A stretch of 64,000 nucleotides of DNA, taken from contig JBJHCC010000010.1 in assembly GCA_050485825.1 (NCBI GenBank), positions 23,895 to 87,894 on the forward strand, read 5' to 3'. The DNA is from Gammaproteobacteria bacterium (GTDB lineage Bacteria; Pseudomonadota; Gammaproteobacteria; Xanthomonadales; Wenzhouxiangellaceae). The notes beneath the pieces are model-generated. The model was given only the letters and a program-made list of their open reading frames with translations, did no database searches and was not told the DNA's origin. Both the position numbers and the translations under genes were made by a program. Position 1 is the first letter of the stretch; every line of letters begins with the position of its first letter. This document shows, one piece after another, positions 39,622 to 60,615 of the stretch.

Positions 39622-39622
39622 A

Positions 39623-41097: not shown

Positions 41098-41119
41098 TTG
41101 ATTGCGATACGGTAGGCGG

Positions 41120-43014: not shown

Positions 43015-44202
43015 ATGGAATTGCTAAACCTGATCGGCCGCACGGCGCCCCTCTTCACCCCCGACATCGCTCGGCACGAAGCCGAGTTGTCGGAGAAAGT
43101 GGCGTCCGGCAGTTTCCTCGTCATCGGCGGCGCCGGTTCGATCGGGCAGGCGGTTGCGCGGGAGATTTTCAAGCGCAATCCGCGCGTGCTGCACGTCGTC
43201 GACATTTCCGAGAACAACATGGTCGAGCTGGTGCGGGACTTGCGCTCGACGCTGGGCTACATCGACGGGGACTTTCGCACCTTCGCGATCGACTGCGGCG
43301 GCCGGGAGTTCGCGGCGCTGATGGCGGCGGAGTCGGGCTATGACTATGTACTGAACCTGTCGGCCTTGAAGCACGTCCGCTCCGAGAAAGATCCGTTCAC
43401 CCTGATGCGGATGATCGAAGTCAATGTTCTGAACACGATTTCGACCATCGCCCAGGCTCGCGACCAGGGCGCGGCCAAGTATTTCTGCGTATCGACCGAC
43501 AAGGCCGCCAACCCGGTCAACATGATGGGGGCGAGCAAGCGGATCATGGAAATGTTCCTGATGCGCGAGAGCGAAACCCTGCCGATCTCGACGGCGCGCT
43601 TCGCAAACGTCGCCTTTTCCGACGGCTCCCTGCTGCACGGCTTCAACCAGCGTTTTGCGAAGCGCCAGCCTATTTCGGCACCGAACGATGTGCGCCGCTA
43701 TTTCGTCACCCCGCAGGAGTCCGGCGAGCTGTGCCTGTCGTCCTGCCTGCTCGGCGACAACCGCGACATTTTCTTCCCCAAGCTGTCGGAGGCGCTACAC
43801 TTGACCCGCTTTTCCGACATTGCGGTTCGCTACCTGGAGAACCTGGGTTTCGAGCCGCACGAGTGCGCCAGCGAGGACGAGGCCCGCAGCCGCTCGGCCG
43901 AGCTGATCGCGCGGAAGAAGTGGCCGGTGTATTTCTTCGCCAGCGACACCACTGGCGAGAAGGATTTCGAGGAGTTTTTCATCGAAGGCCAGGACCTGGA
44001 CCTGGCGCGCTTCGAAACCATCGGCGTGATTCGCAATCCGGCTGACTACGACGCCGACTTGCTGGCCCATTTCCTGGCCGAGATCGAGCGCATTCGATCG
44101 CAGCCGACCTGGGACAAGCCTGAGCTGGTGGCTTTGTTCAATCACGTGATTCCGGAGTTCCAGCACAAGGACACCGGCAAGTATCTCGACGCGAGGATGT
44201 AG
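43015..44202 (+). CDS. NDP-GlcNAc 4,6-dehydratase (LegB/CapD-like short form)
   Basis: VIGGAGSIG, SALKHVRSE, STDKAANP.NMMGASK, ARFANVAFSDGSL. Confidence 0.92.
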   Translation: MELLNLIGRTAPLFTPDIARHEAELSEKVASGSFLVIGGAGSIGQAVAREIFKRNPRVLHVVDISENNMVELVRDLRSTLGYIDGDFRTFAIDCGGREFAALMAAESGYDYVLNLSALKHVRSEKDPFTLMRMIEVNVLNTISTIAQARDQGAAKYFCVSTDKAANPVNMMGASKRIMEMFLMRESETLPISTARFANVAFSDGSLLHGFNQRFAKRQPISAPNDVRRYFVTPQESGELCLSSCLLGDNRDIFFPKLSEALHLTRFSDIAVRYLENLGFEPHECASEDEARSRSAELIARKKWPVYFFASDTTGEKDFEEFFIEGQDLDLARFETIGVIRNPADYDADLLAHFLAEIERIRSQPTWDKPELVALFNHVIPEFQHKDTGKYLDARM

Positions 44203-44209
44203 GCCAAAG

Positions 44210-45439
44210 ATGGGGGGTCAATACGTGCTTGAAGAGTGGCGAACGGCCACACCAGAGCTGACGCCGGCGATTCGTCTGCTGCTTTTGTTTTCGCGTATTC
44301 GGCTCTCGGAAGACCAGGCAGCCCGTGCGCAGGCGCTGATGAAGGCTATTGAAGACTGGACCGATTTCGCGAATCGGGCCGCAGATCATTTTCTGGCCCC
44401 CTTGTGCCTCCATCATGTAGCCGCTTTCGCTGCGTCGCCGGAGGTGCTTGCGTGCAGGCGTGCGCTGGTGCCCCACGTGCGGCAAATGACGCTCCATGTT
44501 CTGAGGCTCGCTGCGATGCAGCGTAGATTCGTGCAGAAGCATGTTGCGCCGCTGCAGTGCCGCTATGTCGTCGTGAAGGGGAGAGCGCTTGCGGCTCGGT
44601 ACTATCCGGATTCCAATCTCCGTTATGCCCGCGATGTCGATATTCTTCTACCACGGCAGCGCATCGAAGCGCTCGTCATGTCAGCGCAGCAGGCGGGGTA
44701 TATGGTTTATCCACAACTTCGTCCGCTATCGGCAATAGAAGCGAAGATTGTGGCGGGCAATAGTGCGGTTGTCAGCTTGCTGGGGCCGGACAACATCTTT
44801 ATCGAAGTTCATGCCCAGCTCGACAAGGCCGGATTTCTGCTAGATCACCGGCGGGTGCTGGAGAACAGAAGTCTCCATCCTGTTGATGGCGTCGAGATCG
44901 GCATGCCCTCTACCCTTGACCACTTTGTCTACATCTGTCTGCATCACACCAAGCATTTTTGGTCCAGGCTGAACTGGTTGGCGGATCTGGACGCAATCGT
45001 TCAATCCCCGGATTTCGATGACGCGGCAACCCTCGACTTTGCCCGCTCCAGAGGGCTTGAGGCTACCGTTCGCGCCTGTTTGGCCTTCTACCGCGCCTGC
45101 GCGGAGGAAGATCCAGTCGAAGCGCTATCGGACAACACCGACGCCAGTGACCTTCTGCGGGCTTGCCTCGTCGTTCTGGGCGGTGGCACCGAAAGCGAGT
45201 TTCAGATGCGCCCTGACAGATTGAGCCCTGACTTCAATTTCGCCTGGCAGATTCCTGAAGGTTTCAGGAGCCGGCAGGCGATGTTTCGAGCGCTGTCCCT
45301 GCTGAAGCCCTCCCTACACGACTATGGAGCTTTGAAGTTGCCGCGTTCGATGTACTGGGCCTACTTTCCGATAAAGCCGGTGCTGGTTGGCTGGCGTCGT
45401 CTGATGCATCGTCGGCGATCGGGCGAGCGGTCGGCTTAG
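44210..45439 (+). CDS. Nucleotidyltransferase family protein (NTP_transf_5-like)
   Basis: VVVKGRALAARYYPDSNLRYARDVDILL, IEVH, HHTKH..SRLNWLADL. Confidence 0.85.
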   Translation: MGGQYVLEEWRTATPELTPAIRLLLLFSRIRLSEDQAARAQALMKAIEDWTDFANRAADHFLAPLCLHHVAAFAASPEVLACRRALVPHVRQMTLHVLRLAAMQRRFVQKHVAPLQCRYVVVKGRALAARYYPDSNLRYARDVDILLPRQRIEALVMSAQQAGYMVYPQLRPLSAIEAKIVAGNSAVVSLLGPDNIFIEVHAQLDKAGFLLDHRRVLENRSLHPVDGVEIGMPSTLDHFVYICLHHTKHFWSRLNWLADLDAIVQSPDFDDAATLDFARSRGLEATVRACLAFYRACAEEDPVEALSDNTDASDLLRACLVVLGGGTESEFQMRPDRLSPDFNFAWQIPEGFRSRQAMFRALSLLKPSLHDYGALKLPRSMYWAYFPIKPVLVGWRRLMHRRRSGERSA

Positions 45440-45454
45440 CGGGAGGCCGTTCGG

Positions 45455-46693
45455 ATGCGTTGGCTTGGGTTGAAGGACGGACTACGTTCTTCTCCGCATC
45501 TTCTGTGGTGGTTTTTACTTACCCCCGGGCGCAGCGGTGTCCTGCGCCGGCATGTGCTGCGCCTCAAAGTCGGATCCGCCGGGACGATTTGGAAATGGTT
45601 ATGGGCTGAGCTTCGACGAGCAGCGGTTTGGCCCCTGGTGGTATGGCATGAGCAGCGAGTGTGTCGCAGCGAGCTTGCATTTCGATTGTCAAAACCTCCC
45701 GTGAACTGGCCTGAACTGGTGCTGGTTTGCCTCTTCGCGGGCATCCTGCCCAGGGAGTACCTGATGCTGGAGCTGTATCGAAAGCGCTCCTCTCGCAACT
45801 TGCATCGATTCGTGTTTCCGCAGGAGTTCAAAACGATCTCACTGGCTTATCGGGACGAAAAAGAGGCGGCTTTGCTGGCCGACAAGGCCGCCTTTCATGC
45901 GCTATTGAGCGAAGCGAGTATTCCGACGGTCCCCATTCTCGCCCGCTTTGTCGACGGTACTTGGACGAGAAGGGCGGCGTTGGAAAATTATGGAAGCCTG
46001 TTTGCAAAGCCGACCCGTGGCCACGGTGGTCAGGGCTCCATTCGTATCGAAAGACGATCATCTGACGGTTACCAAGTGGTTGGATGTGGGAGCGCCGAGC
46101 TTGCCCACCCGGCGCTGTATCTTGGCTCCCGTCGGGAAATTGACTATGCGGCACTGCTGAACTATCTGGAGCGTGCGACCGGGTCGGCCGATGTGATCAT
46201 CCAGCCGAACCTTTTCAATGTTGAGTCCCTTCAGTCCATTGCGCCTTCTGGGCTGAGCATTGTAAGAATCGTGACCGTCCGGGCGACCGAAGAGCCCTTG
46301 GTGATCTGTGCCAGTTTCTGTATGCCTTGCAACCGTCAAATCATCAGCCAGCGGGGCTGCTTTGCCCAGATCGACCTTGGCAGTGGCAGGCTGTCGAGTG
46401 CCGCTGACTTCAGCGTCTCGGGTGAGAGACGAACGCATCATCCCGATTCCGGGCAGCTGATCGAGGGTGTTGGAATTCCCCGCTGGAGCGAGGTTGTCGA
46501 TCTGGCGCTAAGGGCGCATGGGCTCTTCCCCAAGACGGCCTTTATCGGCTGGGATATTGCTCCGACACCGCAGGGTCCCCTCGTGCTGGAAGGCAATCTC
46601 AACTTTTGCGTGCAGATGCTCCAGAAATGGCCGGCCAGGCCGCTTCTGGATACCCGCATGTTTCCCTTGCTGAGACAGCTCGCGACCACCTGA
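45455..46693 (+). CDS. Sugar-transfer-associated ATP-grasp protein
   Basis: LADKAAF, FAKPTRGHGGQG, IIQP, IGWDIAPT..GPLVLEGN. Confidence 0.8.
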   Translation: MRWLGLKDGLRSSPHLLWWFLLTPGRSGVLRRHVLRLKVGSAGTIWKWLWAELRRAAVWPLVVWHEQRVCRSELAFRLSKPPVNWPELVLVCLFAGILPREYLMLELYRKRSSRNLHRFVFPQEFKTISLAYRDEKEAALLADKAAFHALLSEASIPTVPILARFVDGTWTRRAALENYGSLFAKPTRGHGGQGSIRIERRSSDGYQVVGCGSAELAHPALYLGSRREIDYAALLNYLERATGSADVIIQPNLFNVESLQSIAPSGLSIVRIVTVRATEEPLVICASFCMPCNRQIISQRGCFAQIDLGSGRLSSAADFSVSGERRTHHPDSGQLIEGVGIPRWSEVVDLALRAHGLFPKTAFIGWDIAPTPQGPLVLEGNLNFCVQMLQKWPARPLLDTRMFPLLRQLATT

Positions 46694-46737
46694 GGCTTGC
46701 AGGGCGTGCACATCGTTTCTGTACGGAAGCCCACATA

Positions 46738-48564
46738 GTGAAGATACTTGAACCAGTTATCACGGTTCGGCGCGTCCTGCCGATTTTGTGGGAAAGTGCG
46801 CGCACGCTGGCGATCCTGACTGGCGTGCTGCTGTTGCTCGAGATCTCTCTTGGCCTGGCAGTGCTGTTCCTGATCAAGCAGTTGGTAGATGTTCTGACTA
46901 CGAATCTTGCGGTGGGGGGGCTGGGCACCGGGCTTGAATCGGTGCTGCGCGCAGTTGTTCTCGCGGGTTCAGCGACCCTCGCCTTGCTGATCGTTCGGGC
47001 AGCTAGTGGCTTGGCCCGGGAAGCACAGGGAATGCGGGTGGCAGACCATGTGGACAGGATGATCCACAATCGGGCGATAGCCGCGGATCTGGCCTTCTAT
47101 GAAAGTCCGCTGTATTTCGATACGCTGCAGCGAGCGCGGCAGTCAGGCAATCAGCGACCCGCCCAGGTTGTGTCCAACCTGCTGATGATGAGCAAGAACC
47201 TGATCATGCTGGTCGGGGTGATTGTCCTGCTGTCCAGCATCAGCTGGACGCTGTTACCGGTGCTACTTATCGCCATAGTACCGGCCTTGCTGGTACGCCT
47301 GTATTTCACCCGGATTCTCTATGAATGGCGAAAGCGGCGAACCCAGCTCGAGCGCCGCGCAGGCTATTTTGACTGGCTGCTTACCTCAGATCTACATGCC
47401 AAGGAGCTGCGCCTGAACCAGCTGGGTGCTGTCTTTCGGGATCTCTATTCGGATATCCGCCAGACGATCCGAAGTGAGCAATTCGGAATCAATCGTCGCC
47501 GCGCGCTCGTTGAGGGTTTGGTGGGTAGCGTGGCGACCCTCGTCTTCTTCGCCGCGCTCGCTTATCTGGCGTTCCAGACGGCTGAAGGTCGAAACACTGT
47601 TGGTGACCTCGTGCTTTTTTTGCTGATTCTGCAACGCGCCCAGGCCATGGGCCAGGAGCTGGTGGGTCAGGTTTCGAGGCTTTTTGAAGACCACCTATAC
47701 ATCAGCCAGCTGTTCGATTTTCTGGAGGTCCGGCCGCGGATTACCAGTCCCAAAAGCCCCGCTGCTCTACCCGAGGAAAAGGGCATCGAGGTCCGCCTCG
47801 AGGCCGTAGACTTCACTTATCCCGGCTGTCGAGATCAGGTCTTGAAGCAGGTCGATCTGCGCATCGCGCCGGGGCAGATCGTGGCGCTGGTCGGCTCCAA
47901 TGGTTCGGGAAAGACATCGCTGATCAAGCTTCTGTGTCGGCTCTACGATCCGAGCGCTGGCCGAGTGCTGGTCGACGGTCGGGATGCCGCGGATTACGAT
48001 CTGGAGGAGTACCGTTCGCTGTTCAGTGTGGTGTTTCAGGATTTTGCCCGCTACGCGTCTACAGTGCGGGAAAACATTCGCTTCGGCGATCTTGATTGCC
48101 CCGTCGATAGCCCGGCCATTCTCGAAGCGGCGAAACTGTCTGGGGCAGCCGACTTCATCGAGCTTTTGCCGAAAAAATATGATACTTTTCTCAATCGTTC
48201 GTTCGACGGTGGCGTGGAGCTCAGCGTCGGACAGTGGCAGAAAATCGCGCTTGCCAGGTCATTCCTGCGACCTTCACGGATCGCCATTCTGGACGAACCG
48301 ACCAGCGCGATCGATCCGAACGCGGAATTCGAACTGTTTGAGAATTTTCGGGAGCGTCTAGGGGGGCGATCGGCGCTGATCATCAGTCACCGGCTGTCGA
48401 CGATTCGCCTGGCGGACTACATTTATGTCCTTGAATCTGGGCGAATTGTTGAGGCCGGTGATCACGACGACCTGATGAGCCGCCAAGGCGTCTACTTCCA
48501 GGCCTTCAGCCGCCAGGGCAAATACTATCGGGATAAGGAAGCGCCGGCTGGAGCCGTGAGCTGA
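46738..48564 (+). CDS. ABC transporter, fused TMD+NBD (RiPP exporter type)
   Basis: GSNGSGKTS, LSVGQWQKIALAR, ILDEPTSAID. The LSxGQWQ form is typical of peptide-exporter ABCs. Start set to GTG 46738. Confidence 0.88.
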   Translation: MKILEPVITVRRVLPILWESARTLAILTGVLLLLEISLGLAVLFLIKQLVDVLTTNLAVGGLGTGLESVLRAVVLAGSATLALLIVRAASGLAREAQGMRVADHVDRMIHNRAIAADLAFYESPLYFDTLQRARQSGNQRPAQVVSNLLMMSKNLIMLVGVIVLLSSISWTLLPVLLIAIVPALLVRLYFTRILYEWRKRRTQLERRAGYFDWLLTSDLHAKELRLNQLGAVFRDLYSDIRQTIRSEQFGINRRRALVEGLVGSVATLVFFAALAYLAFQTAEGRNTVGDLVLFLLILQRAQAMGQELVGQVSRLFEDHLYISQLFDFLEVRPRITSPKSPAALPEEKGIEVRLEAVDFTYPGCRDQVLKQVDLRIAPGQIVALVGSNGSGKTSLIKLLCRLYDPSAGRVLVDGRDAADYDLEEYRSLFSVVFQDFARYASTVRENIRFGDLDCPVDSPAILEAAKLSGAADFIELLPKKYDTFLNRSFDGGVELSVGQWQKIALARSFLRPSRIAILDEPTSAIDPNAEFELFENFRERLGGRSALIISHRLSTIRLADYIYVLESGRIVEAGDHDDLMSRQGVYFQAFSRQGKYYRDKEAPAGAVS

Positions 48565-48611
48565 GCAAGCGGCGTCGCGCAGCCCGGGCCAAATGCTGAA
48601 ATAGCCAACAT

Positions 48612-49496
48612 TTGATGGATTATTGTATGAAGGTGTTTGTGGGTGGTTTGGTGTCCCTCTCTCTGGCATTCGGGCTGGTGGCTGAGAACTTTGCAGGCTC
48701 ACCCGAAGCTTTTGATTTTTCGGATCGAACAGAGCTGAAGACCGGTGGTCATGTGTTGCCTCCCGCTCCGGCCGTCAGGCGCGGTCAGCCGGTGGGTGGA
48801 TTCATCGTCTGGGATAACGGAGGGTTTATCACCCATCCAGGGGCGGGTGTCGATGGTGCGGATGTCAGCATGGCCTCTGAAGATCAAAATTCCGCCGGCG
48901 ACAATGTTCGAAAGCTGGAAAATAATGCCTATTTCCGAATCGCCGACCGGTTCGAGCTTTCGCAAAAGACCGGCCTGCTCACTCTGTCCACGTTCGGCTA
49001 CGAGCCCTTTGTGGCGCCACCAACGTGGACGTCCCGCAACCTCAGGATCTGGGCCGGGGTGCCTGGTGAACCAGGCAGCGAGGTTTTGTTTGAGCGGGAG
49101 TACAGCATTCTTGACGTTCAGTTCACTGGCGTCTATCGAGTGCTTCATCTCGAAAATCTTGATGATGTTCGGAGGCCGATCTATGAAATCTCCTGGGACT
49201 TGGCTGTGGCTGACAGCGCAGCTCCGCTGTGGCTAGAGGAAGGAGAGTACTGGATTGACTGGCAGGTCGTCGGCGGCGTAACCGGTTGGGCGATTTATGT
49301 CATGCAAGCCAATCCAGAGGATCCCGACTATCCGGTTACGCCTTTGGGAGATGCGCTGCAGTTGCGGCCGATCGGCTGGACTGCGAATGAGGTGTCGACA
49401 CCCTTTTTGCTGTTCGGCCTATCCGAGACGCTTTTCCAGGATCGATTCGAGGGGCTTGAACCGCCGGAGGCCAATGAGGAGTTTGTGGCCCCTTGA
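48612..49496 (+). CDS. Secreted beta-rich protein with C-terminal LFQDRFE motif
   Basis: Signal-like N-terminus (LVSLSLAFGLVA); near-terminal ETLFQDRFE. Confidence 0.55.
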   Translation: MMDYCMKVFVGGLVSLSLAFGLVAENFAGSPEAFDFSDRTELKTGGHVLPPAPAVRRGQPVGGFIVWDNGGFITHPGAGVDGADVSMASEDQNSAGDNVRKLENNAYFRIADRFELSQKTGLLTLSTFGYEPFVAPPTWTSRNLRIWAGVPGEPGSEVLFEREYSILDVQFTGVYRVLHLENLDDVRRPIYEISWDLAVADSAAPLWLEEGEYWIDWQVVGGVTGWAIYVMQANPEDPDYPVTPLGDALQLRPIGWTANEVSTPFLLFGLSETLFQDRFEGLEPPEANEEFVAP

Positions 49497-50410
49497 AGCA
49501 TTGGTTTAGTTGCTTCGGCCTCCTTGTGGCCAGCGACCTTGATCTGCGCGGTCAACCGGTTTCGCCAGGCCAGCCTGATTTGGCGCTCCGAGTCCAGCGA
49601 ATCCGGGATAAGCCCGCGCCAAGTCCGACTCAGCAGTGGGGGCGCGATCAGGCAAGGCAATCGAGTTGGGCGCTTTGCCCGGGGATTGCTCGTGTCGAGG
49701 CACATGACAGCGGTGATGTGCTGATCGAGGTGGATGAGGATCTTGATTCGGATAGTCTGCGCTTCGTAGCTGTCACAATTGCATTGCCCCTGGCGCTTCA
49801 GCAGCGCCCGGGATTGATGCTGGAGGCCAGTGCGGTTCGTTGGCACGGGCAGGTGCTGATCATCTGCGGTCGGGGGTACTGCGGCAAGTCGACTCTCGCC
49901 GCCTTGATGGCTGATTTGGGCGCTGAATTGCTGGCGGATTCGCACTGCTTGCTGACCCAAGGTGAATCGGGTGAACTGCTGCTGGGACCAGCTCTTCCAC
50001 ATGTCCGCCTTTGGCCTGCTCAATCGCAGCTGCTTGGGACTGAGTGGCCAGCGCCAGTCACACTCCGCCCCGGGCTTGGCAAGCGCCTGTTTGTCGTTCC
50101 GGAGCGCTTCGCCGCAGATCCCTCGCCCGTTAGCGGACTGATCGTTCTGCGCCGAGGTGTAGACGCCCAATTCAGGCACCATCGCCTCCCTGTTACCGAA
50201 TGCCTCCAGGCTCTGGCCGCGGCCGGCAGTCGTCTAGTCTGCTCTGTAACCCCGGCTCAGACTGCGCTTCGCTTCAGAATCATGACAAAGCTGGCGGCGC
50301 TTCCAATCTGTCACCTCCTGCAATGGCCGCGATGGGGTCAGAATGAACTCGAAACGCGTTCGAGGCTGCTGGAACTGCTGGCTGAGCAGGATTGGGGCGT
50401 TACGGCGTGA
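49493..50410 (+). CDS. HPr-kinase-related protein, degenerate active site
   Basis: LEASAV (usually LHASAV), GRGYCGKSTL Walker A, LLADS (usually DD). Confidence 0.75.
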   Translation: MKHWFSCFGLLVASDLDLRGQPVSPGQPDLALRVQRIRDKPAPSPTQQWGRDQARQSSWALCPGIARVEAHDSGDVLIEVDEDLDSDSLRFVAVTIALPLALQQRPGLMLEASAVRWHGQVLIICGRGYCGKSTLAALMADLGAELLADSHCLLTQGESGELLLGPALPHVRLWPAQSQLLGTEWPAPVTLRPGLGKRLFVVPERFAADPSPVSGLIVLRRGVDAQFRHHRLPVTECLQALAAAGSRLVCSVTPAQTALRFRIMTKLAALPICHLLQWPRWGQNELETRSRLLELLAEQDWGVTA

Positions 50411-51267: not shown

Positions 51268-51314
51268 TTGGCAGAGCAGTCAGACATCCTGACTTTTGAT
51301 TGGGGAATATCGTA

Positions 51315-52131: not shown

Positions 52132-53981
52132 GCGCCTTTGTGGCGGTTGTTCATTTTGATGACGCACCTGTTGACTCCAAGCTTGTTCAGGGGCTGGCAA
52201 ATATAGTAGCGTACCGAGGACCCGACGCCAGCGCGGTCTATTGCTCTGGTGCATTGGGTTTGGCGCATCACCTGATGCGCGTGACGCGATCCTGTGCGGA
52301 GGATGCACAACCGCTGGTATCCACTGCTGGTCAGTTTGCGCTTGTCTGCGATGCGCGGTTTGATCAGCGGCGCCTTTTGATCAATGCGCTGCGGGGTCAC
52401 GGGGTTGTTGTTTCGGAAAGATCTCCCAACTCGAGACTGCTGCTTGAAGCCTTGCAGCTTTGGGGGGAAGCGGCTCTTGACAGGATCAAGGGTGACTATT
52501 CCTTTGTGTTTTTTGATCAAGCTCGGCGGCGTGTCATTGCCGCCGTCGATCCTTTTGGACTGCGCACACTTTTCTACGGAACTTTTGAGAATGGACTGGT
52601 GATCAGTAATGATCCATTGCCAGTCCTGGCTCATCCAGCGCTTGATGTTGCTTTGGATCGAACAGCTTTGGCAGACTTTCTGATGACCGGTCGAGTGGGG
52701 GGAATTGACCCTGCGGCTACGCCCTTTCGATTGGTCCGGCAGCTGGTAGGGGGGCATCGAATCAGGCTCGACGTGGACTCAGGCAAGACCGACATTCGTC
52801 GGCACTGGCAGTTTCCGATACAAAGCAAGGCGCTCTATTACAGTTCCCTTGAGGACTACGGCGAGCACTTCCGCTGTGTTTTGAAGGAGGCTGTCAGCGA
52901 CCGCATTGACGCGCCGTCGGTAGTGGCCCCGATGAGCGGTGGGATGGACTCGACCACCGTGGTCGTCACGGCAGCCGAGCTCATAGCCGGTGGTTCTGGG
53001 CCGGATCTCTTCACCGCGGTAACGGCGGTGCAGCATGATCAAGACCCTGAGGGCCTGCTGGCCGCTGAGGTTTGTAGAGCGGCAGGTGTTCCCCATCATA
53101 AAATTGTCGCCAGCCCTGGTAGACCCTTGGCTGCTTGGCGGTGCATGCCGTTTCCGGCGACTGATTTTTTTGACCTATACGAGAACAACCAAAGAGTTTC
53201 GTCCCAGTTTGGTCGCCTGAGCATTAATGCCAGCAGCGCAGATTATGCGCTGTGCCCAGAGCCTTTCAGCATCTTGGGTCAGCTGCGCGCCTCAGGTCTG
53301 AGGGATACCTGGCGTGCTCTAAGGATCATGAAGTCCCAGTACCGGTTTCGTCCTCGGTTTGGGTCCGGGCTTTATTCCTGGTTAAGGCGAACACCGATCG
53401 TCAACCCATACACTCGGCCGCCGTATCCTTACCCGGACTGGTTGTCATCGGATCTTGAGCGGGATTTGGAGCTTCGGGAGCGCTGGGCTGCGCACTGGTC
53501 ACGCTGGCCTTCACCCCAGCACCCATTGCGGCCCACTGCCCATCGAATGATTACTGCAAAGGGGCGCCTCAGCATGCATTCGGTCGGTTGGCCCCTGGAT
53601 TTTGCCTTGCCGGCTCCAGCTGACCCGTTTCTGGACCAGCGCATGATCGAGTTTCTTTGGTCGCTCCCCCCTCTTCCCTGGTTCTATGACAAGCACTTGA
53701 CCCGGACTGCGATGCGAGGCTGGCTACCTGATTCGGTCGTTGATCGTCCGAAGACTCCAGCCCGTCGGTGGCTGCCATCCGCAACCCGTGACGGCGTAGA
53801 TTTTTCCTGGGACCCCGGTGGCTTGATCCTTGAGCTAGTCGACCGATCTCGGCTCAGGGAGCTTAACGACGACGGTGCCTCGGCGGCAGACTTCCACCCC
53901 ATGTTTCTGAATCGGTGGCTGACCTCCTTTGAGGCAGTTTTTGAGCAAATGACGGGGAAAAAGTGCCAACTCACTGTTTAA
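52128..53981 (+). CDS. Lasso cyclase C (asparagine synthase-like)
   Basis: MSGGMDST PP-loop, PFLDQRMIEF, K..RTAM..WLP..V..RPK; no N-terminal catalytic Cys; coupled to B2. Confidence 0.9.
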   Translation: MSAFVAVVHFDDAPVDSKLVQGLANIVAYRGPDASAVYCSGALGLAHHLMRVTRSCAEDAQPLVSTAGQFALVCDARFDQRRLLINALRGHGVVVSERSPNSRLLLEALQLWGEAALDRIKGDYSFVFFDQARRRVIAAVDPFGLRTLFYGTFENGLVISNDPLPVLAHPALDVALDRTALADFLMTGRVGGIDPAATPFRLVRQLVGGHRIRLDVDSGKTDIRRHWQFPIQSKALYYSSLEDYGEHFRCVLKEAVSDRIDAPSVVAPMSGGMDSTTVVVTAAELIAGGSGPDLFTAVTAVQHDQDPEGLLAAEVCRAAGVPHHKIVASPGRPLAAWRCMPFPATDFFDLYENNQRVSSQFGRLSINASSADYALCPEPFSILGQLRASGLRDTWRALRIMKSQYRFRPRFGSGLYSWLRRTPIVNPYTRPPYPYPDWLSSDLERDLELRERWAAHWSRWPSPQHPLRPTAHRMITAKGRLSMHSVGWPLDFALPAPADPFLDQRMIEFLWSLPPLPWFYDKHLTRTAMRGWLPDSVVDRPKTPARRWLPSATRDGVDFSWDPGGLILELVDRSRLRELNDDGASAADFHPMFLNRWLTSFEAVFEQMTGKKCQLTV

Positions 53982-54043
53982 GAAGAAAAAGTTCTTTTGC
54001 GAGTGGCCCTTGGCCTTTCAGTTGGAAGGATGGCTTGAAAAGC

Positions 54044-54072
54044 TTGACATCGGTCACGGATCTGAATAATCT
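54044..54072 (+). promoter_or_regulatory. sigma70 promoter of the precursor gene
   Basis: TTGACA-17 bp-TAATCT; SD AAGGGA at 54095-54100. Confidence 0.65.
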
Positions 54073-54108
54073 ACCTACGCTTGGCCGACTTTCAAAGGGA
54101 CCGATATC

Positions 54109-54270
54109 ATGAAAAAAGAGTACTCTACTCCGAAAATTGCCGCGCTGGGTCAGCACGCTGACTTGGTGGCGGCTGGTGGTGCGTCGTCTGATGTCGACGG
54201 CGTATTTTACCGAGATGGTGAGAAGTTTGCCTCGTTTGGCACCGATCCGAAGACGCCGCCGGTCAGCTGA
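54109..54270 (+). CDS. Lasso precursor peptide, 53 aa (below ORF-track cutoff)
   Basis: MKKEYSTPKIAALGQHADLVA-AGGASSDVDGVFYRDGEKFASFGTDPKTPPVS; leader YxxPxI-x3-G motif, Asp at core positions 7 and 9, C-terminal Ser. Confidence 0.88.
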   Translation: MKKEYSTPKIAALGQHADLVAAGGASSDVDGVFYRDGEKFASFGTDPKTPPVS

Positions 54271-54289
54271 TCGAGCCTTACGGTGGAAG

Positions 54290-54317
54290 AAAGCCGTCGT
54301 ATCGACGGCTTTTTTTT
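54290..54317 (+). terminator. Intrinsic terminator, possibly bidirectional
   Basis: AAAGCCGTCG-TAT-CGACGGCTTT followed by a T run, between convergent genes. Confidence 0.88.
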
Positions 54318-54364
54318 GCCCGGGCTTTGGGAAAACAATCGATATGAATTAGCTCTAAGTCTTA

Positions 54365-55324
54365 TCAAGCGATAGGGGATAGGCGCTTTCGGAATGATGA
54401 TTGATCAAATTGGCAAATCACCGACCCGTGCTTATCGCTCACTTCGCCTTTCCATTGCCATAGATAGGTCTGGTTAGTCCAGTGCGCATGAATTTGCGCC
54501 TCAATTTGGAAGCCTGGTCGAACCTCAATTGCGTGGGGCAGTGGCATAAATGCCTGTCCGTAGATCAGTTCCGGTTCAGCCGGATGGTTTGAAAACCCGA
54601 CCCCTGGAGCAAGCTCCGCATCAAACCATGTGGCAAGCCCATGAAGCAGGCCCGAACGCTTGATCTCCCAAGACATCAGGCCATGGGCGCTGGGTTCTGT
54701 GACGTTGTGGTAGTCGATAGTTAGCCAGTGCTGCGCTTCGCTTAGCATTTGCTCCGGCCGCAGTCTAACCTTGCTCCATCGATTGATCTCGAAATCGGCG
54801 CCCGCGGCTAAGTCCAGTCCGAACGGGTTGATTCGCCAGGGCTCTGTAACTCTGCGATACTCCTCAGGGTGCTCGACTGGAGCCGAGTATAGGTTGTCGC
54901 GGCGGCCAATCAGAATGCCGTCGGGTGCAAGCAGCCGTTCTCTGGCGTCGATGATGCTGGGAATATGTTGCGAGTAGAGTGGAAGAACGCTACGCAAATC
55001 AGAGATGATGACGTTGGCCGAGGTGTCAAGTTCAAGATTACTGGAGACGCCTTCGATGCAGCTCACTCGATCCTGCATGTCGTTTTGCTGAACAAGTCTT
55101 TTCGCCAGTCTGATCGACGGGTTGCATTCAACCGCTATGACCTGTCGGGCCCCCATACGTGCTGCCAGCATGGCAAAAACGCCCGGGCCGGCACCAATTT
55201 CCAGCACTAGATCGCCTGGCTTTATCAGCTTCTGCATGGCAGCCAGGTAGGCCTCCACGCGGGGCTGGTTCAGCACCATGTGACCGAAATGAGTCAGCGT
55301 GTAGCCCGGATCGTGCATATCCAT
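54365..55324 (-). CDS. PRMT-like SAM methyltransferase
   Basis: HMVLNQPRVEAY, VLEIGAGPG, AVECN, then a beta-barrel half (HGLATWFDAEL). Start ATG 55324 after a TAAGG SD. Confidence 0.78.
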   Translation of the reverse strand: MDMHDPGYTLTHFGHMVLNQPRVEAYLAAMQKLIKPGDLVLEIGAGPGVFAMLAARMGARQVIAVECNPSIRLAKRLVQQNDMQDRVSCIEGVSSNLELDTSANVIISDLRSVLPLYSQHIPSIIDARERLLAPDGILIGRRDNLYSAPVEHPEEYRRVTEPWRINPFGLDLAAGADFEINRWSKVRLRPEQMLSEAQHWLTIDYHNVTEPSAHGLMSWEIKRSGLLHGLATWFDAELAPGVGFSNHPAEPELIYGQAFMPLPHAIEVRPGFQIEAQIHAHWTNQTYLWQWKGEVSDKHGSVICQFDQSSFRKRLSPIA

Positions 55325-55326
55325 CC

Positions 55327-56355
55327 TTAAACGTTGGGCTGGAGCGAAAGCGCCTGGCAGAGTTCGCGCGCGCTGGAATCCAGCGTAGATAGCTCCCATG
55401 GCCTGCGGTATTCATAGACCTCTATTTGGCGGGCGATCCGGCCACCAAAGTCGTGAAGTCGAGTTTGGTCGAAATACAACTGGCACAAGGCAGGTCGGTA
55501 GATCGAGTGCATGAATGCCCGGTAGGCGCCTATGCCCCGAATGCGTCGGATTGTTGCCGGCTGATCAGGCTCGCCTCGTGTCAGGATGACGAGCTTCGTC
55601 AATGGCGCAGGTTGATTATGAGAGCCAGACTTCTGCCGTATGTGGAACTTGTCTTCACGGGCCAGATCGCGGCTGAGTCCAGATTTGCTCAGCCCTAGGG
55701 CGTCGAGCGCGCTGGTCCATAGCTTAAGTCGGGGCGGTCCAGGATGCAGCAAGGGATCCGGATCCTCAGGCCTCAGTACGGCAAGATCGTCGCTGACCAG
55801 TGAAAATCCCAGCCGATAATGAAGATAGGCTATAAGCGTTGATTTCCCGGCGCCGGATGGGCCCGTGAACGCCACAGCGCCGTCACCGGTCCTGATGGCA
55901 CTGACGTGTATCGGCAACTGTTGCCGTTGGTGAAGAAGCGCCCCGAGCACCGTGCCGAGCAAATAGGTTCTGACGTCACCTTCCGCCGCTCGTGTCTCCG
56001 CAGTGGTCTGGTCGCGCCGATCCACCGTAATTGTTCTGCCGTCTTCTACAAGGTACCGGGCCACATTGGGGCTTCCAACAATGCATTGTCGAGCGTTAAA
56101 CAGAAGCCACGGCGCGCCCGCGCGACCATTTGGCAGCGTGGTAGGCACCTCGCCAAGGATAATCTCTACGACGTCCTCTTCTTCCGGCTCCGGATGTGAC
56201 GGGCTCAGTTCAGGGATTTCGAGCTGCGATCGTATCGTAAGTCCGCATGTCCGATACACGTGCCACACGGGCTGTCGACTGCGCTTGCCGCGCCTCTCAA
56301 TGGGGCGCGACTCGCGTCCTTCGCTATTGGTCCCGGACGCGGCTATGCTGTTCAT
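55327..56355 (-). CDS. HPr-kinase-related (PadeK-like) kinase, intact motifs
   Basis: IHVSAI, FTGPSGAGKSTL, LVSDD, PRLKLW. Confidence 0.87.
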   Translation of the reverse strand: MNSIAASGTNSEGRESRPIERRGKRSRQPVWHVYRTCGLTIRSQLEIPELSPSHPEPEEEDVVEIILGEVPTTLPNGRAGAPWLLFNARQCIVGSPNVARYLVEDGRTITVDRRDQTTAETRAAEGDVRTYLLGTVLGALLHQRQQLPIHVSAIRTGDGAVAFTGPSGAGKSTLIAYLHYRLGFSLVSDDLAVLRPEDPDPLLHPGPPRLKLWTSALDALGLSKSGLSRDLAREDKFHIRQKSGSHNQPAPLTKLVILTRGEPDQPATIRRIRGIGAYRAFMHSIYRPALCQLYFDQTRLHDFGGRIARQIEVYEYRRPWELSTLDSSARELCQALSLQPNV

Positions 56356-56545
56356 GGTGGGCTCACTCGGGACCGCTCGCTCTCTGGAGATTCTCCGGAT
56401 TCAATAATTTTAAACTCATATCTTCGAAGATAGTGAATCACAGGAGTTTGTACTCGAAAACTCGCTGCTGCGGCTGGGGGACGGCTATTCGGCCTCGGTT
56501 GGACAGGGGTAATTGGTCAGCCCTGTGTTACGCTGATGCCAACTG

Positions 56546-57811
56546 GTGGCTAGGCGAATTCTTTCCGTAATGTCCGGCTTACAATCCTCGACCACCCTCG
56601 GCGTCTCTGCCGATTCGATATTGCAGCGTGCATTCGAGTTGACGCTGTCCATACAGGGCGAGAAAGTGGTCCTCCTGGCCGGCGGCCGGTTTGCCAGCGT
56701 GAGCGCGCATACGCTGGCCATTCTTGATGCATTCGCGACTCCCAAAACCCTGGCGGCCGGCCTCCAGCAGCTTTCTTGCCGATCAAGAGGCTTGCGGGAC
56801 TGGATTCGGCTTAACAACCAGGTTTTAGCGCTAGTTCAGGCCGGGATCCTCGTTGAACCGGATAGCCGCGATGTGCTTTTCCCGTCTCATTCCGGCAGTT
56901 TTTCGAGCCCGGATATTCACATCCGGATGCTCAATGATCAGGTCCGCACCTTGGCATATCAGCAGGCGCTTCGGGAAGTTGTGCGGCCCGGTGACGTGGT
57001 AGTGGATGTCGGGACTGGCACCGGGGTGCTTGCGGCATCCGCTGCGCTTGCGGGGGCTCGGCAGGTCTACGCAGTGGAGCGGACCGGGAATATGCCCAAG
57101 CTCGCTCGGGAGTTTTTCCGGGCGAACGGTCTGGATGGCAGAATTACGTTGATAGAAGGTGACTCTACCGGTGTTCAGTTGCCGGAGCCGGCCGATGTGA
57201 TGGTCAGCGAGATTATCGGAAACGACCCGCTGGCCGAGGGGATAGTTTCAACTACTGCAGATGCGCGCCGAAGGTTGCTGGCAAGCAAGGCCCGGATCAT
57301 CCCCTCTGTGTTGCGGCTTTATGCGCTGCCGTTGACTGCCCCGGACGCGCTCTACCAACAGGCGGTCTTTACGGTCGACCAGGCCGAGAATTGGCGGAAC
57401 CGCTATGGGCTTGATTTTTCAGGATTCGTCGCTGATTGCTCCGCCAGGACCTTCACGACGACAGTCAACACTGCGCGGGTCAAGGCGTGGCCGCGGCTGG
57501 CAGCGCCCATTCTCTTGGAGTCGATTGATTTGGCCGAAGCAACGGTTGAGGCGATCGAAGTGACGCGCGAGTTTGCCGTCGAAGCTTCAGGTCAAATCAA
57601 CTGTATTGTCTTGTACTTCGAGGCTCAGCTCTCGCCTGCGGTTTGTTTGTCCGTTCATCCGGATCACGCCGATGCGGCGAACAGCTGGGCCAGTTGGGCT
57701 TGGTTGCCCGGCCAACCCTTGGCGGTCCGAGCCGGGCAGCGCATGCGGTTGAACTATCGCTTCGACGTGCGCAATAAGTCCTCCATGCTCCTCAGCGAGT
57801 TCCTGCCCTGA
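56546..57811 (+). CDS. PRMT-like methyltransferase with N-terminal RRE/wHTH-like domain
   Basis: HIRMLNDQVRTLAY, VVDVGTGTG, double-E loop VSEIIGNDPLAEG; N-terminal three-strand/three-helix pattern ending LVQAGILVE. Confidence 0.8.
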   Translation: MARRILSVMSGLQSSTTLGVSADSILQRAFELTLSIQGEKVVLLAGGRFASVSAHTLAILDAFATPKTLAAGLQQLSCRSRGLRDWIRLNNQVLALVQAGILVEPDSRDVLFPSHSGSFSSPDIHIRMLNDQVRTLAYQQALREVVRPGDVVVDVGTGTGVLAASAALAGARQVYAVERTGNMPKLAREFFRANGLDGRITLIEGDSTGVQLPEPADVMVSEIIGNDPLAEGIVSTTADARRRLLASKARIIPSVLRLYALPLTAPDALYQQAVFTVDQAENWRNRYGLDFSGFVADCSARTFTTTVNTARVKAWPRLAAPILLESIDLAEATVEAIEVTREFAVEASGQINCIVLYFEAQLSPAVCLSVHPDHADAANSWASWAWLPGQPLAVRAGQRMRLNYRFDVRNKSSMLLSEFLP

Positions 57812-57891: not shown

Positions 57892-58157
57892 TACTAGTAC
57901 CTGCACAAGTATTGCCACATTCAGCTTGTCTCTCGGCGTTGGTGGCAAGGCGTCGGCGCGCCGATGTAGCCACCCTACATCAAGCGCCGAGAACGAAGTC
58001 CACGGACGCCGAGAGGCAAGCCCGAAGGGGGCTCCTGACGAATCCGCCCGCGGCGTTAAAGTGGCTCGACGTAGACTGACTATGCCTTCACCACTTTGCC
58101 TTGCAGGCGAATCCGTCAGGAGCCCTGAATGAGGCAATGCTTATGCAGGTACTAGTA
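57892..58157. mobile_element. 266-bp MITE-like element with 33-bp terminal inverted repeats
   Basis: 57892-57924 versus 58125-58157 are complementary at 30/33 positions; CTAG near both ends; nested internal hairpins; no credible ORF. Confidence 0.75.
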
Positions 58158-58533: not shown

Positions 58534-59784
58534 ATGTTGAATTTTGAGTGTGGTTTGGTCCTGCGTAGGCGTCGCCGCTCTTCCTTGGCGCTGGTGGTTT
58601 TTCTCATTTTTTCAGTTGGTTGGACGAGTAACGCTGCGGCCAATCCGGCCTTCGATCAGTTCCTGGCCAGCGCCGGTGAGTGGCTGGAGGCTCGACAGCT
58701 GCCAAGCGGCGCTTTCCCCTACTCGGAAGCGGATCCGACAGTTTTTCCCAGTGTCCAGTCGGTTTCTGGCCTGGCGATGCTGGCTGCCTATGAGGCCACT
58801 TGCCGCCTTGGCAACTGCAATACCGACTTTCTGGACTCGGCGGTTTTGGCCGGCGATTACATGATCGGGGGCGGCTTTGGTAATTTTTCACCTAACACAG
58901 GCCTTCCACGTATTCGGACGTTTGACCCGCTGCTTTTGGTGCGCCTGTCAGAGGCAACTGGGGATCCCCAGTACGCCGACTTTATCCAGGTGAACTTCTG
59001 GCAGCGTCTGGAAGACGGCATCTACGGGCCGCAGAACAATTGGGATATCGACGACTATGTAGCCTCCGAACTCGCTCGTCGCGCGGGTGCCCCGAGCACC
59101 GGGCCGATCGTGGCCGCCTGGGACTTGGCTCTGATAGCAGCTGCCGCCCGGGAAGCAGGTATCAACCAGTTCAATGCCTCGCTGGCCGTCGGCGCCAGCA
59201 CGGCCCTGGAGTCTGCTACCGACGCCGGGACCTCGATCGGCGCGAGCGGCTTTGATGTTCTGGGCTTGACCGGTGCAGTGTGGATGGGCGCATTGACTGG
59301 CCTCTCGACCGTGCCGGGCTCTGGTCCCTGGTCGGGCGTTGCCGGGAATTCGGGGCTTGCCAGCCTGCTGATGCAGTACCAAGGCCCGCAGGGTGGGTTC
59401 CTGCAGAGTTCGGCGGCCGGCTCTTCTCCTGTTCAGGATGTGGATACAGTTAGCCAGAATACTGCTTTTGCAATTGTGGGGCTCCATCAGTTGAATCGCG
59501 TCGCCTATGGCCACTCGATTCTGCGGGGTCAGGAGGCGCTGGTTGAGGTCTTCCAGGAGCCCAGTGGGCGAGTCAACTACTATCATCCGGACGTTGATCT
59601 GAGCTCGGTGGCTGATCCCAAGCCTTACTTGCATGTCCACGCCTATGCGTTGTTCGCCTTGGCCGACACCCGCGACCTGCCGGATCCGGCCCCGGTTCCG
59701 GTCAATGATTGGCGCCTGCTTTCGCTGCTGGCGCTGCTGATGCTGGTGCTCGGCTGGACGGGCTTGGTGGTTCGCCGGCAGTAG
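58534..59784 (+). CDS. Exported alpha/alpha-barrel-like protein with IPTL-CTERM-like C-terminal anchor
   Basis: Signal peptide; Q..SGAF / Q.PQGGF QW-like repeats; tail PVPVNDWRLLSLLALLMLVLGWTGLVVRRQ. Confidence 0.6.
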   Translation: MLNFECGLVLRRRRRSSLALVVFLIFSVGWTSNAAANPAFDQFLASAGEWLEARQLPSGAFPYSEADPTVFPSVQSVSGLAMLAAYEATCRLGNCNTDFLDSAVLAGDYMIGGGFGNFSPNTGLPRIRTFDPLLLVRLSEATGDPQYADFIQVNFWQRLEDGIYGPQNNWDIDDYVASELARRAGAPSTGPIVAAWDLALIAAAAREAGINQFNASLAVGASTALESATDAGTSIGASGFDVLGLTGAVWMGALTGLSTVPGSGPWSGVAGNSGLASLLMQYQGPQGGFLQSSAAGSSPVQDVDTVSQNTAFAIVGLHQLNRVAYGHSILRGQEALVEVFQEPSGRVNYYHPDVDLSSVADPKPYLHVHAYALFALADTRDLPDPAPVPVNDWRLLSLLALLMLVLGWTGLVVRRQ

Positions 59785-59813
59785 TCGCCGCGAATCGGCA
59801 ATGATCGATACAG

Positions 59814-59846
59814 AACGCCCGGATGCTTCGGTATCCGGGCGTTTTG
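59814..59846 (+). terminator. Intrinsic terminator with C(UUCG)G loop
   Basis: AACGCCCGGATGC-TTCG-GTATCCGGGCGTT-TT. Confidence 0.8.
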
Positions 59847-59955
59847 CTTGTCTGGCCCCAGCCTGAGCCGCGGCCGCCTGGCGTTAGCTGGGGAAGACCC
59901 CGGCAGTTTTTTCGCTATCCTTCTTGCCCAATACTTTCGCCGCAGGGTGTGGGTC

Positions 59956-60615
59956 ATGCAGCGTTTTTTTGACATCGTGTTCTCGGCGCTGGCGCTGTTG
60001 GTTCTGGCGCCCCTGCTGGTTCCTATTGTTGTTCTGCTGCGCCTGACCGGGGAGGGCGAGGTTTTTTTCGGTCAGCTGCGGATAGGGCAGGGCGGTCGGC
60101 CGTTTCGCCTGCTGAAGTTCGCGACCATGCTCAAGGACAGCCCCAATCTCGGGACGGGCACCCTGACCGTCAAGAACGACCCGCGGGTGCTGCCGATGGG
60201 GCGATTCCTGCGCAAGACCAAGCTCAATGAACTGCCGCAGCTGATCAATATCCTCGCCGGCGACATGAGCGTGATTGGGCCCCGGCCGCAGACTCAGCGC
60301 TGCTTTGACGCGTTTCCGGCACGTTCTCAGATGGAGATCATCAAGGTCCGGCCGGGCTTGTCCGGGATCGGGTCGATCGTGTTTCGCGACGAAGAGGAGC
60401 TGATGGCCCATGCCCGCGACCCCGACGCCTACTATGACCAGGTGGTCATGCCCTACAAAGGGCGGCTGGAAGAGTGGTTCGTCGCCCGTCGCTCTCTTTA
60501 TGTGTATTTCGCCCTGATTGCCTTGACGGTCTGGGTGATTCTGTTTCCCAACAGCGAAGCGGTGTTCCGGGTTTTCCCGGACTTGCCCCCGCGCCCCCCC
60601 GAGATGGACGGGTGA
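59956..60615 (+). CDS. Priming phosphoglycosyltransferase (Bac_transf, PglC/WcaJ-like)
   Basis: RFFD, FRLLKFATM, FLRKTKLNELPQL.N...GDMSVIGPRP, RPGLSG. Confidence 0.92.
   Translation: MQRFFDIVFSALALLVLAPLLVPIVVLLRLTGEGEVFFGQLRIGQGGRPFRLLKFATMLKDSPNLGTGTLTVKNDPRVLPMGRFLRKTKLNELPQLINILAGDMSVIGPRPQTQRCFDAFPARSQMEIIKVRPGLSGIGSIVFRDEEELMAHARDPDAYYDQVVMPYKGRLEEWFVARRSLYVYFALIALTVWVILFPNSEAVFRVFPDLPPRPPEMDG

Follow-up and report, generated by a model that had tools for sequence, protein, structure and literature searches.

A predicted phosphorylated-type lasso-peptide cluster within a surface-glycan locus of Wenzhouxiangella

Gene content of the locus

We analyzed a 64,000-nucleotide stretch of a Wenzhouxiangella genome (contig JBJHCC010000010.1 of assembly GCA_050485825.1; hereafter, the window) that carries a predicted lasso-peptide gene cluster among genes for surface-glycan synthesis (Table 1). 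The RecA of this genome shares 93–95% identity with the RecA proteins of named Wenzhouxiangella. The region from approximately 3.7 to 44.2 kb forms a large surface-glycan locus of lower GC-content. The last conserved gene of this locus encodes a sugar-nucleotide 4,6-dehydratase, which is found at 74–91% identity in 13 of the 59 genomes of the genus and on a related metagenome contig (L001). A cassette of 15.7 kb fills the interval between the stop codon of the dehydratase and a small PglC-like priming transferase (hereafter, Bac_transf). Judging from its genes, positions 44210–57811 are predicted to constitute a complete class II lasso-peptide gene cluster of the phosphorylated paeninodin/pseudomycoidin kind.

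The lasso genes are arranged in the order nucleotidyltransferase (NTase1), ATP-grasp, ABC exporter, 294-residue protein, 305-residue HprK-like protein, sulfotransferase, B1, B2, cyclase C and precursor; they are followed by a methyltransferase (MT1) and a 342-residue HprK-like kinase, both convergent, and then by a divergent second methyltransferase (MT2). The open reading frames (ORFs) of the dehydratase and of NTase1 are separated by 7 nt on the + strand (TAG at 44200–44202, gccaaag, then ATG at 44210), and no terminator-like site was found at this junction. The cassette and the dehydratase are probably co-transcribed. These coordinates agree with an earlier sequence-only reading of this DNA, which had placed a block for a ribosomally made, post-translationally modified peptide (RiPP) 7 bp after the stop of a "LegB-like" dehydratase, on the same strand, and had described it as separating this gene from the priming transferase at 59956. 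The latter position is the start supported by homology, within an ORF that spans 59848–60615, and "LegB-like" is acceptable as a family label given the match to PDB 3PVZ. The same reading had named the first two genes a nucleotidyltransferase and a sugar-transfer ATP-grasp, as borne out by matches to PF14907 and PF14397, and had considered them of types also found in glycan loci. A second ATP-grasp gene of this type (ATPgrasp2) lies in the glycan part of the window and has orthologues in lasso-free glycan loci of relatives.

The sequence features of a class II lasso cluster are all present, i.e., a cyclase C, B2 together with B1, and a YxxP precursor with a small residue at core position 1 and an Asp/Glu at positions 7–9. 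The cyclase matches its family over the N-terminal half (E 2.7e-50), with a score under the equivalog cut-off, and presents the ATP motif SGGMDS. Its close homologues are few (about seven, with 51–69% identity, among 5.8 billion proteins) and, among the 59 Wenzhouxiangella genomes, this cyclase is found in this one only. We aligned the precursor (MKKEYSTPKIAALGQHADLV-AAGGASSDVDG...) with its homologues from five related loci. All six peptides share the leader KEYxxPKxxxLGQHADLV and the candidate ring-closing Asp, and all six end with a Ser despite differing tails. A Gly1–Asp8 register is compatible with the six precursors, whereas Ala1–Asp9 is compatible only with those having Ala at that position, and the predicted ring is most simply Gly1–Asp8. 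The invariant terminal Ser, together with the presence of a kinase, suggests that the system fits the paeninodin/pseudomycoidin paradigm (PMC8498205, PMC6993621).

Among the tailoring genes, NTase1 presents a DxD motif (D142/D144) that is invariant across 30 homologues. Its AlphaFold2 model (pLDDT 86.6) yielded only weak fold matches (LnuA, ANT(2'')-Ia and small nucleotidyltransferases, all with E > 0.001), and no sequence match was found in the PDB; the same weak fold relatives were published for PsmN, the nucleotidyltransferase of pseudomycoidin (PMC6993621). The ATP-grasp gene at 45455 is kept beside lasso genes in L001, L003 and G077, the exporter is 60–84% identical in L001, L008, G081 and G066, and the Walker A motif is intact in both kinase-like proteins of the cluster. 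We found no glycosyltransferase (GT) family match between 44210 and 57811, the position where a davasin-type cluster would hold one. No signal-peptidase family match was found in the lasso block either, and the presence of a cyclase and of B2 also sets it apart from clusters for linear polyphosphorylated peptides (LPP). None of the scanned genes of the window matched Wzy_C, the domain that a PglL/PilO-type system would have in a transferase beside the acceptor gene, although Wzy_C genes do adjoin related clusters in G370 and in Terriglobia. Finally, no Pfam match was obtained for the 294-, 416-, 364-, 378- and 276-residue proteins of the window or for a 470-residue protein of L003.

Table 1. 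Features of the glycan locus, the lasso cassette and the downstream region (window coordinates)
Feature	Position	Strand	Evidence or remark
Surface-glycan locus	~3.7–44.2 kb		Wzc-like co-polymerase/kinase, GDP-mannose dehydratase (GMD), five GT4, sulfotransferases, ATPgrasp_ST, RimK-like ligase, DegT aminotransferase, 3PVZ-type UDP-GlcNAc 4,6-dehydratase
Second ATPgrasp_ST (ATPgrasp2)	32459–33448		glycan part of the window
NDP-HexNAc 4,6-dehydratase (Polysacc_synt_2, 3PVZ type)	43015–44202	+	Pfam; PDB 3PVZ E 4.5e-178
NTase1, PF14907 nucleotidyltransferase (NTP_transf_5), candidate PsmN-type enzyme	44210–45439	+	Pfam E 1.5e-28
ATP-grasp, "sugar-transfer associated" (PF14397 ATPgrasp_ST)	45455–46693	+	Pfam
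MsbA/McjD-like ABC exporter	46606–48564	+	true start probably ~46740
294-residue protein	48612–49496	+	N-terminal signal-like helix, no family match; conserved in L001, L008
Second HprK-related kinase-like protein, 305 residues	49493–50410	+	TIGR04352 E 5.7e-5; Walker A GRGYCGKST
PAPS-type sulfotransferase (Sulfotransfer_1)	50392–51267	+	Pfam
B1, PqqD-type leader-recognition protein	51300–51596	+	PF05402, NF033536
B2, lasso leader peptidase	51694–52131	+	PF13471; NF033537, 68 bits vs cut-off 33
C, lasso macrolactam cyclase, asparagine-synthase fold	52128–53981	+	PF00733, PF13537, NF033535
Precursor peptide, 53 residues	54109–54270	+	YxxP leader, conserved ring Asp, C-terminal Ser
MT1, PRMT-like methyltransferase	54365–55399	-	227 relatives, nearly all beside C, kinase and NTase genes
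Kin342, HprK-like peptide kinase, 342 residues	55327–56355	-	TIGR04352 E 1.6e-8, under cut-off; Walker A GPSGAGKST
MT2, second PRMT-like methyltransferase	56546–57811	+	family match
Repeat like a miniature inverted-repeat transposable element (MITE), right cassette edge	57892–58157	.	~10 copies in genome
416-residue exported protein	58534–59784	+	N-terminal signal, C-terminal hydrophobic helix and RRQ tail
Bac_transf, small PglC-like polyprenyl-phosphate sugar-phosphate transferase	59956–60615	+	PF02397 E 2e-47; TIGR03025
DUF218 / ElyC-like envelope protein	61086–61856	+	family match
NTase2, second PF14907 nucleotidyltransferase	61810–62919	+	first gene of lasso cluster 2
Third HprK-like kinase, 311 residues, lasso cluster 2	63307–64242	-	window ends at 64000; contig read beyond window
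Secreted Peptidase_C25/GEVED protein, 1461 residues	beyond window		lasso cluster 2 region
Cluster-2 precursor candidate	beyond window		leader ...YVPPAFERHPLQLITL, core GGSPGLAD..., C-terminus not Ser
Cluster-2 B2 homologue (B2b)	beyond window		PF13471 E 2e-20
Cluster-2 cyclase (C2)	beyond window		PF00733 E 6e-34

A variable cassette and its glycan neighbors

We compared the locus with related loci and genomes. The full arrangement is found in L001, from the dehydratase (91% identity) to Bac_transf (70%) and DUF218 (60%), with lasso genes that are 45–85% identical to those of the window (68% for cyclase C). In L008, MT2 is likewise followed by Bac_transf. In another Wenzhouxiangella genome (G081), this slot is filled by a lasso set that is much more divergent (cyclase 33%, precursor 50%, ABC exporter 60%), between flanks that are 53–85% identical (dehydratase 85%, Bac_transf 63%). 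The slot is also occupied in G066, where the dehydratase is followed by NTase and ABC genes up to the end of the contig. In the lasso-less G082, the dehydratase is joined to Bac_transf, and homology with the window at the DNA level ends at 44203 and is found again from 60037. Two further lasso-less genomes (G013 and G068) retain the remaining glycan locus, with ATPgrasp2, RimK-like, GMD and DegT genes at 53–78% identity. By these comparisons, the lasso block is a 15.7-kb variable cassette with conserved flanks, similar to the variable center of an O-antigen locus. We also considered the dehydratase, Bac_transf and DUF218 as genes dedicated to the lasso cluster, and rejected this idea: the three stay together in the lasso-less G082, G072, G015 and G068. 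The spacer of 650 bp that occupies the slot in G082 (L039, G082:C191) carries a small unrelated ORF, GxxExxY / PD-(D/E)XK-like, with CTCGCGAAGGCGCGAAGGCGCTAAG-type flanking repeats. Because of this ORF and its repeats, the junction between dehydratase and Bac_transf appears to accept other inserts too.

Two explanations for the position of the cassette were weighed primarily. The one that we favor, with a confidence that is about even, is a coupling between the peptide and its surroundings: a sugar made by the locus would decorate the predicted phospho-Ser tail of the lasso peptide, through a shared supply of sugar nucleotides. The other is positional coincidence. The cassette would then be a self-sufficient, horizontally exchanged unit in a recombination-prone region. 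Its phospho-lasso peptide, acting as an antimicrobial or a signal, would be exported and stay free, with no need for sugars made by the locus and with any sugar taken from common pools. We consider coincidence possible, although not the probable explanation. It accords with the presence of the lasso cluster in only 2–3 of the 59 genomes of the genus, and the identity of cyclase C (33–69%) relative to that of the dehydratase (85–91%) fits an exchange of cassettes via conserved flanks, as in O-antigen loci. Several additional points weigh against a coupling. The region has the traits of an insertion hotspot, with a small insert at the empty site of G082, a MITE-like repeat bordering the cassette on its right, and toxin–antitoxin modules and a gene for a DUF4143 ATPase to the left. 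Glycan loci and RiPP clusters are both accessory DNA and tend to gather in variable regions. Moreover, the cluster needs nothing from its neighbors, because it encodes its own ABC exporter and a full tailoring set. Lastly, pseudomycoidin was glycosylated in E. coli without dedicated sugar genes (PMC6993621).

Coincidence is opposed by the operon-tight spacing of the junction (7 nt here) and by the recurrence of glycan genes beside related lasso loci. In a search of 401 genomes of the order, relatives of the cyclase (E <= 1e-32) were found in eight further genomes, which represent seven genera and four families. Glycan markers were searched within 10 kb by tblastn with proteobacterial queries, and neighboring genes were labelled by tblastn and selected Pfam scans. 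All eight loci presented such markers, relative to 2 of the 31 control regions, i.e., 20-kb regions drawn at random from the same or sampled genomes (p ~7e-7; Fisher test; this p-value and the one below are overstated because related genomes are not independent, which also speaks for caution toward a coupling). For comparison, markers were found in 3.4% of the 20-kb windows in the rest of this genome. In G152, GMD and two epimerases abut MT1, with a carbamoyltransferase, a GT2 and a GT4 on the other side. A GT4 gene lies within the cluster of G198, between MT2 and NTase, and Wzx and two epimerases are adjacent to that of G163. In G370, the NTase is preceded by Sel1, Wzy_C, a WecA-like transferase and an epimerase, and B2 is followed by DUF218, whereas in G276 ManC and a dehydratase lie beside the NTase. 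The marker is DUF218 in G358 and G395, and this gene thus adjoins lasso loci in three genomes (with G370) in addition to the window. An NDP-sugar dehydratase or epimerase gene immediately adjoins a PF14907 gene in the window, G066, G370, G276, G013 and G081:C51.

We then extended the comparison across phyla with a profile anchored on MT1 (an alignment of seven sequences), which yielded 227 relatives when 185,579 species genomes were searched. Of these 227, the best 80 belong nearly all to B1-(B2)-C-kinase-MT-ABC-NTase clusters, and come from Acidobacteriota, Chromatiaceae, Chloroflexota and Cyanobacteria. A glycan marker was found in 17 of these best 80 loci and in 10 of the 31 loci of at least 18 kb, more than in the controls (2 of 31; p = 0.011). 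Outside Proteobacteria these counts represent a floor, because the tblastn queries were proteobacterial. The association thus recurs in Acidobacteriota and Chloroflexota, and it has been reported in Bacilli (PMC13381572); this recurrence counts against coincidence. In two metagenome-assembled genomes (L104 from Deltaproteobacteria and L137 from Binatia), we observed two or three cyclases with a kinase, a methyltransferase and NTases, and Bac_transf in the middle of the cluster. These two loci show most clearly a priming transferase enclosed by a cluster of this kind and, with the GT4 of G198, argue in the same direction.

Full-length Wzc-like genes lie within 10 kb in 8 of the 31 long loci, and Terriglobia loci contain Wzy_C-like genes between NTase and Wzc. 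The frequency of Wzc neighbors would also suit a different explanation, namely that the lasso peptide acts on the glycan machinery, either as an inhibitor of assembly or chain length, as a regulator, or as a toxin against the envelope synthesis of a rival, and is co-regulated with it. Several lasso peptides are known to inhibit envelope or polymerase targets. In P. alginolyticus, moreover, a paeninodin-like cluster and an eps gene were induced together (PMC13381572), a precedent that we also count in favor of a coupling. However, an action on the machinery leaves unexplained the conserved kinase and nucleotidyltransferase chemistry as well as the sugar-nucleotide genes within operons, and we regard it as very improbable.

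The association nevertheless has limits, which count for coincidence and against a coupling. We sampled 400 other Gammaproteobacteria across the class and obtained five cyclase hits. The flanks could be used for four of these, and a glycan marker, a weak one, was found in a single locus of the four. About two thirds of the family members across phyla present no glycan marker within 10 kb, so that most members elsewhere are without detectable glycan neighbors, and one locus (L012) lies in housekeeping surroundings, between a GGDEF/EAL gene and argR/asd. The enrichment of homologues in glycan loci, which the sequence-only reading had put forward as a check on its proposal, therefore stands for the order (8/8) and in part across phyla (10/31), but it does not hold for the class-wide sample (1/4) or for L012. 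We conclude that the association with glycan genes is real, strong in the order and partial elsewhere, and that it is no general property of lasso clusters. Since the class-wide sample failed to reproduce it, we make no claim for lasso clusters in general.

Possible sugar decoration of the peptide

Related clusters adjoin sugar genes far above chance, which suggests that the peptide is probably sugar-decorated. Under the coupling that we favor, B1 would bind the YxxP leader of the 53-residue precursor, B2 would cleave the leader off, and C would close the macrolactam onto the conserved Asp, as expected from family precedent. One or both HprK-like kinases would then phosphorylate the invariant C-terminal Ser, possibly multiple times; in the paeninodin type, a homologue of HPr kinase (poly)phosphorylates this residue before lasso folding (PMC8498205). 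The PF14907 nucleotidyltransferase may subsequently attach a sugar to the Ser phosphate in a PsmN-like manner: PsmN and its DxD are required for the addition of one or two hexoses to the phospho-Ser of pseudomycoidin, and mutation of the DxD abolishes activity (PMC6993621). Further groups, on targets that are speculative, might be added by the ATP-grasp, the sulfotransferase and both PRMT-like methyltransferases, and the ABC pump would export the product.

The decorating sugar would be supplied by the surrounding glycan locus, as suggested by the tight spacing of the dehydratase and the recurrent adjacency of PF14907 genes to dehydratase or epimerase genes. Since lasso and sugar genes are paired in other lineages too, a shared sugar-nucleotide supply is the likeliest functional link. 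The operon-tight sugar genes, the terminal Ser of all six precursors and the retention of the DxD that is essential in PsmN make a sugar decoration of phospho-Ser a reasonable proposal. The glyco-lasso idea of the sequence-only reading thus keeps its central part, a likely link to sugar metabolism that is supported by the neighbors, the terminal Ser and the DxD, whereas the enrichment expected from it depends on the lineage. Its bolder suggestions, namely a peptide that primes or is bound to a surface polymer and is no free secreted product, find no support in our results.

It is also conceivable that the peptide is covalently conjugated to a glycan, the PF14907 enzyme or a partner (an O-antigen-ligase-like enzyme or a phosphoglycosyl-transferase) linking the poly-phospho-Ser, in the role of a nucleotide's triphosphate, to a sugar in the polymer or lipid-linked glycan of the locus by a phosphodiester. 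Several observations are consistent with such a conjugate. HprK-like kinases produce di- and tri-phospho-Ser (PMC8498205), and the products of PsmN still have one or two phosphates, to which the hexose is bound (PMC6993621). The nearest folds of NTase1, LnuA and ANT(2'')-Ia, move a phosphoryl-linked group to sugar hydroxyls, although these matches are weak (E > 0.001). Genes similar to Wzy_C or O-antigen ligase adjoin the G370 cluster and, in Terriglobia loci, stand between the NTase and Wzc genes, and priming transferases are found inside or beside clusters. In addition, a pathway from phospho-Thr to a GlcNAc phosphodiester, with a nucleotidyltransferase and a methyltransferase, was proposed for the flagellin of C. 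difficile (PMC10714395). On the other hand, the support comes from neighborhood and analogy, the MsbA-like pump suggests that a small product is exported, no dedicated ligase was recognized in the window, and the C. difficile pathway is itself a model. We therefore consider a conjugate quite unlikely.

A more specific version, which we likewise judge unlikely, would make the kinase and the PF14907 enzyme a device for coupling peptide to glycan. By analogy, poly-phospho-Ser might mimic a nucleoside triphosphate, and the peptidyl-phosphate would be moved onto a sugar hydroxyl of a polymer or lipid-linked glycan that is built on the neighboring priming transferase. If so, both lasso peptides of the locus (the second is described below) would cap or decorate the surface polysaccharide through phosphodiester links, which would account for the presence of such clusters in glycan loci of at least four phyla.

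In its core, the cluster is, by sequence, unexceptional within the split-B class II lasso family and its phosphorylated sub-kind. It resembles psmCAKB1B2ND of Bacillus pseudomycoides, i.e., the pseudomycoidin cluster, in its split B1/B2, C, ABC exporter, HprK-like kinase predicted to act on a C-terminal Ser, and NTP-transferase with a DxD, which in PsmN was shown to be essential (PMC6993621). It differs by its Gram-negative gammaproteobacterial host, a longer core of ~31–33 residues, and the additional second kinase-like gene, ATP-grasp, sulfotransferase and two PRMT-like methyltransferases. It also has a sugar dehydratase on one side and a priming transferase on the other, and it is known from its genes alone. 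The leader presents YxxP where the paeninodin-like leaders of Bacillota present WxxP (PMC13381572). Sulfotransferase and nucleotidyltransferase genes recur in the paeninodin (pade) cluster and in the kinase clusters of Proteobacteria from Zhu et al. 2016 (review: PMC8498205), as they do here; in contrast, PRMT-like methyltransferases are a constant hallmark of the present clusters, and the one of the window is part of a glycan locus.

In Bacilli, paeninodin-like and LPP clusters are embedded in capsular polysaccharide loci, and the authors suggested that neighboring sugar genes might modify the peptides, with a role that they gave as unknown (Nat Commun 2026, PMC13381572). Those clusters share with ours the HprK-like kinase, the NTP transferase, the MsbA-like transporter and the position inside polysaccharide loci. 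Ours belongs to another phylum and envelope type and lacks a SipW-like peptidase; the priming transferase lies between two lasso clusters that are unrelated to each other, and the slot is reused by divergent cassettes. LPP clusters combine a SipW-like signal peptidase I, an RRE, a kinase, an NTP transferase plus an MsbA-like pump without a cyclase, whereas a cyclase is present here. The davasins are lasso peptides on which the glycosyltransferase IgtG iteratively glycosylates one Ser (PMC11912497), and the decoration of a single Ser by a cluster-encoded enzyme is what we propose here. However, davasins rely on a conventional GT that acts directly on the Ser of the mature lasso, while the route here would pass through phospho-Ser and a PF14907 enzyme. 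The type A glycan of C. difficile flagellin (CD0240–CD0244; PMC10714395) follows a similar logic, from the phosphate of a hydroxy-amino acid to a sugar phosphodiester, with a nucleotidyltransferase and a methyltransferase. That proposed model has a free amino acid as donor and a GlcNAc bound to protein as acceptor, and its enzymes are unrelated to those studied here.

What is distinctive is therefore the tailoring set, the Gram-negative host, the base-precise placement, the reuse of the slot and the second cluster across the transferase; we found no paper on lasso peptides of Wenzhouxiangella. The cassette offers a compact Gram-negative test case, since it is bounded to the base and abuts sugar-nucleotide and priming genes. 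Natural relatives with an empty slot, an alternative cassette or a double cassette make it possible to ask whether sugars of the locus are placed on the peptide, or the peptide on the polymer. The cluster also points to unexplored tailoring of lasso peptides by PRMT-like methylation, sulfation and ATP-grasp ligation. If a conjugate were indeed formed, peptide-decorated surface glycans would emerge as a new class, and PF14907, a large uncharacterized family, would gain a new type of reaction. The main value of the locus lies in being a well-delimited system for an open question.

A second lasso cluster and nearby accessory DNA

A second lasso cluster starts with NTase2 at 61810 and runs past the end of the window to ~72970 (in window coordinates), where the contig ends. 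As a consequence, Bac_transf and DUF218 are sandwiched between two different lasso clusters. No BLAST similarity was found between the cyclase of the second cluster (C2) and that of the first. Homologues of C2 are present in 10 of the 59 Wenzhouxiangella genomes, including W. marina, and the cluster-2 precursors of the genus have the common pattern YExPxFxxHxLxxITL-GG(S/T)PGxGDSG. In W. marina (G061), the genes are ordered C25 peptidase, A2, C2, B2b, NTase2, ABC, DUF218, DegT and GT4. Both types coexist in G029, where a lasso-1-like set, the 416-residue protein, Bac_transf (78%), the C25 protein and cluster 2 are found all together.

NTase2 belongs to this second cluster, which lies largely beyond the window and was out of sight of the sequence-only reading, and not to the glycan pathway. 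We had considered NTase2 as proof that PF14907 genes are native to glycan loci, and dropped this argument once the downstream cluster appeared. PF14907 genes beside sugar genes with no lasso genes in reach were found only in G081:C51 and G013.

Several minor features surround these genes. The C-terminus of the 416-residue protein, with its hydrophobic helix and RRQ, resembles a sorting signal, and this protein recurs beside Bac_transf/DUF218 and lasso clusters in L001, G081, G029 and G079. An inverted copy of the MITE-like repeat is located at window coordinates 68915–69170, beyond the window end. The two inverted copies bracket 10.8 kb that contain the 416-residue protein, Bac_transf, DUF218, NTase2, the third kinase and the C25 peptidase, which suggests that this segment could be a mobilizable or invertible unit. 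On the other side of the cassette, a PIN-domain gene, an AbiEii toxin gene and the DUF4143 AAA ATPase gene lie at 37436–42271, between the PMI and the DegT/dehydratase genes. Because they interrupt the sugar pathway, this end of the glycan locus is likely a landing zone for accessory DNA. Finally, stretches of ~34 residues that are ~80% identical recur in overlapping ORFs at 60700–61089, 62986–63390 and 63143–63970. The last of these ORFs (275 residues) is probably no gene because the kinase occupies the opposite strand, and the recurrence of these stretches around DUF218 and NTase2 points to another small dispersed DNA repeat.

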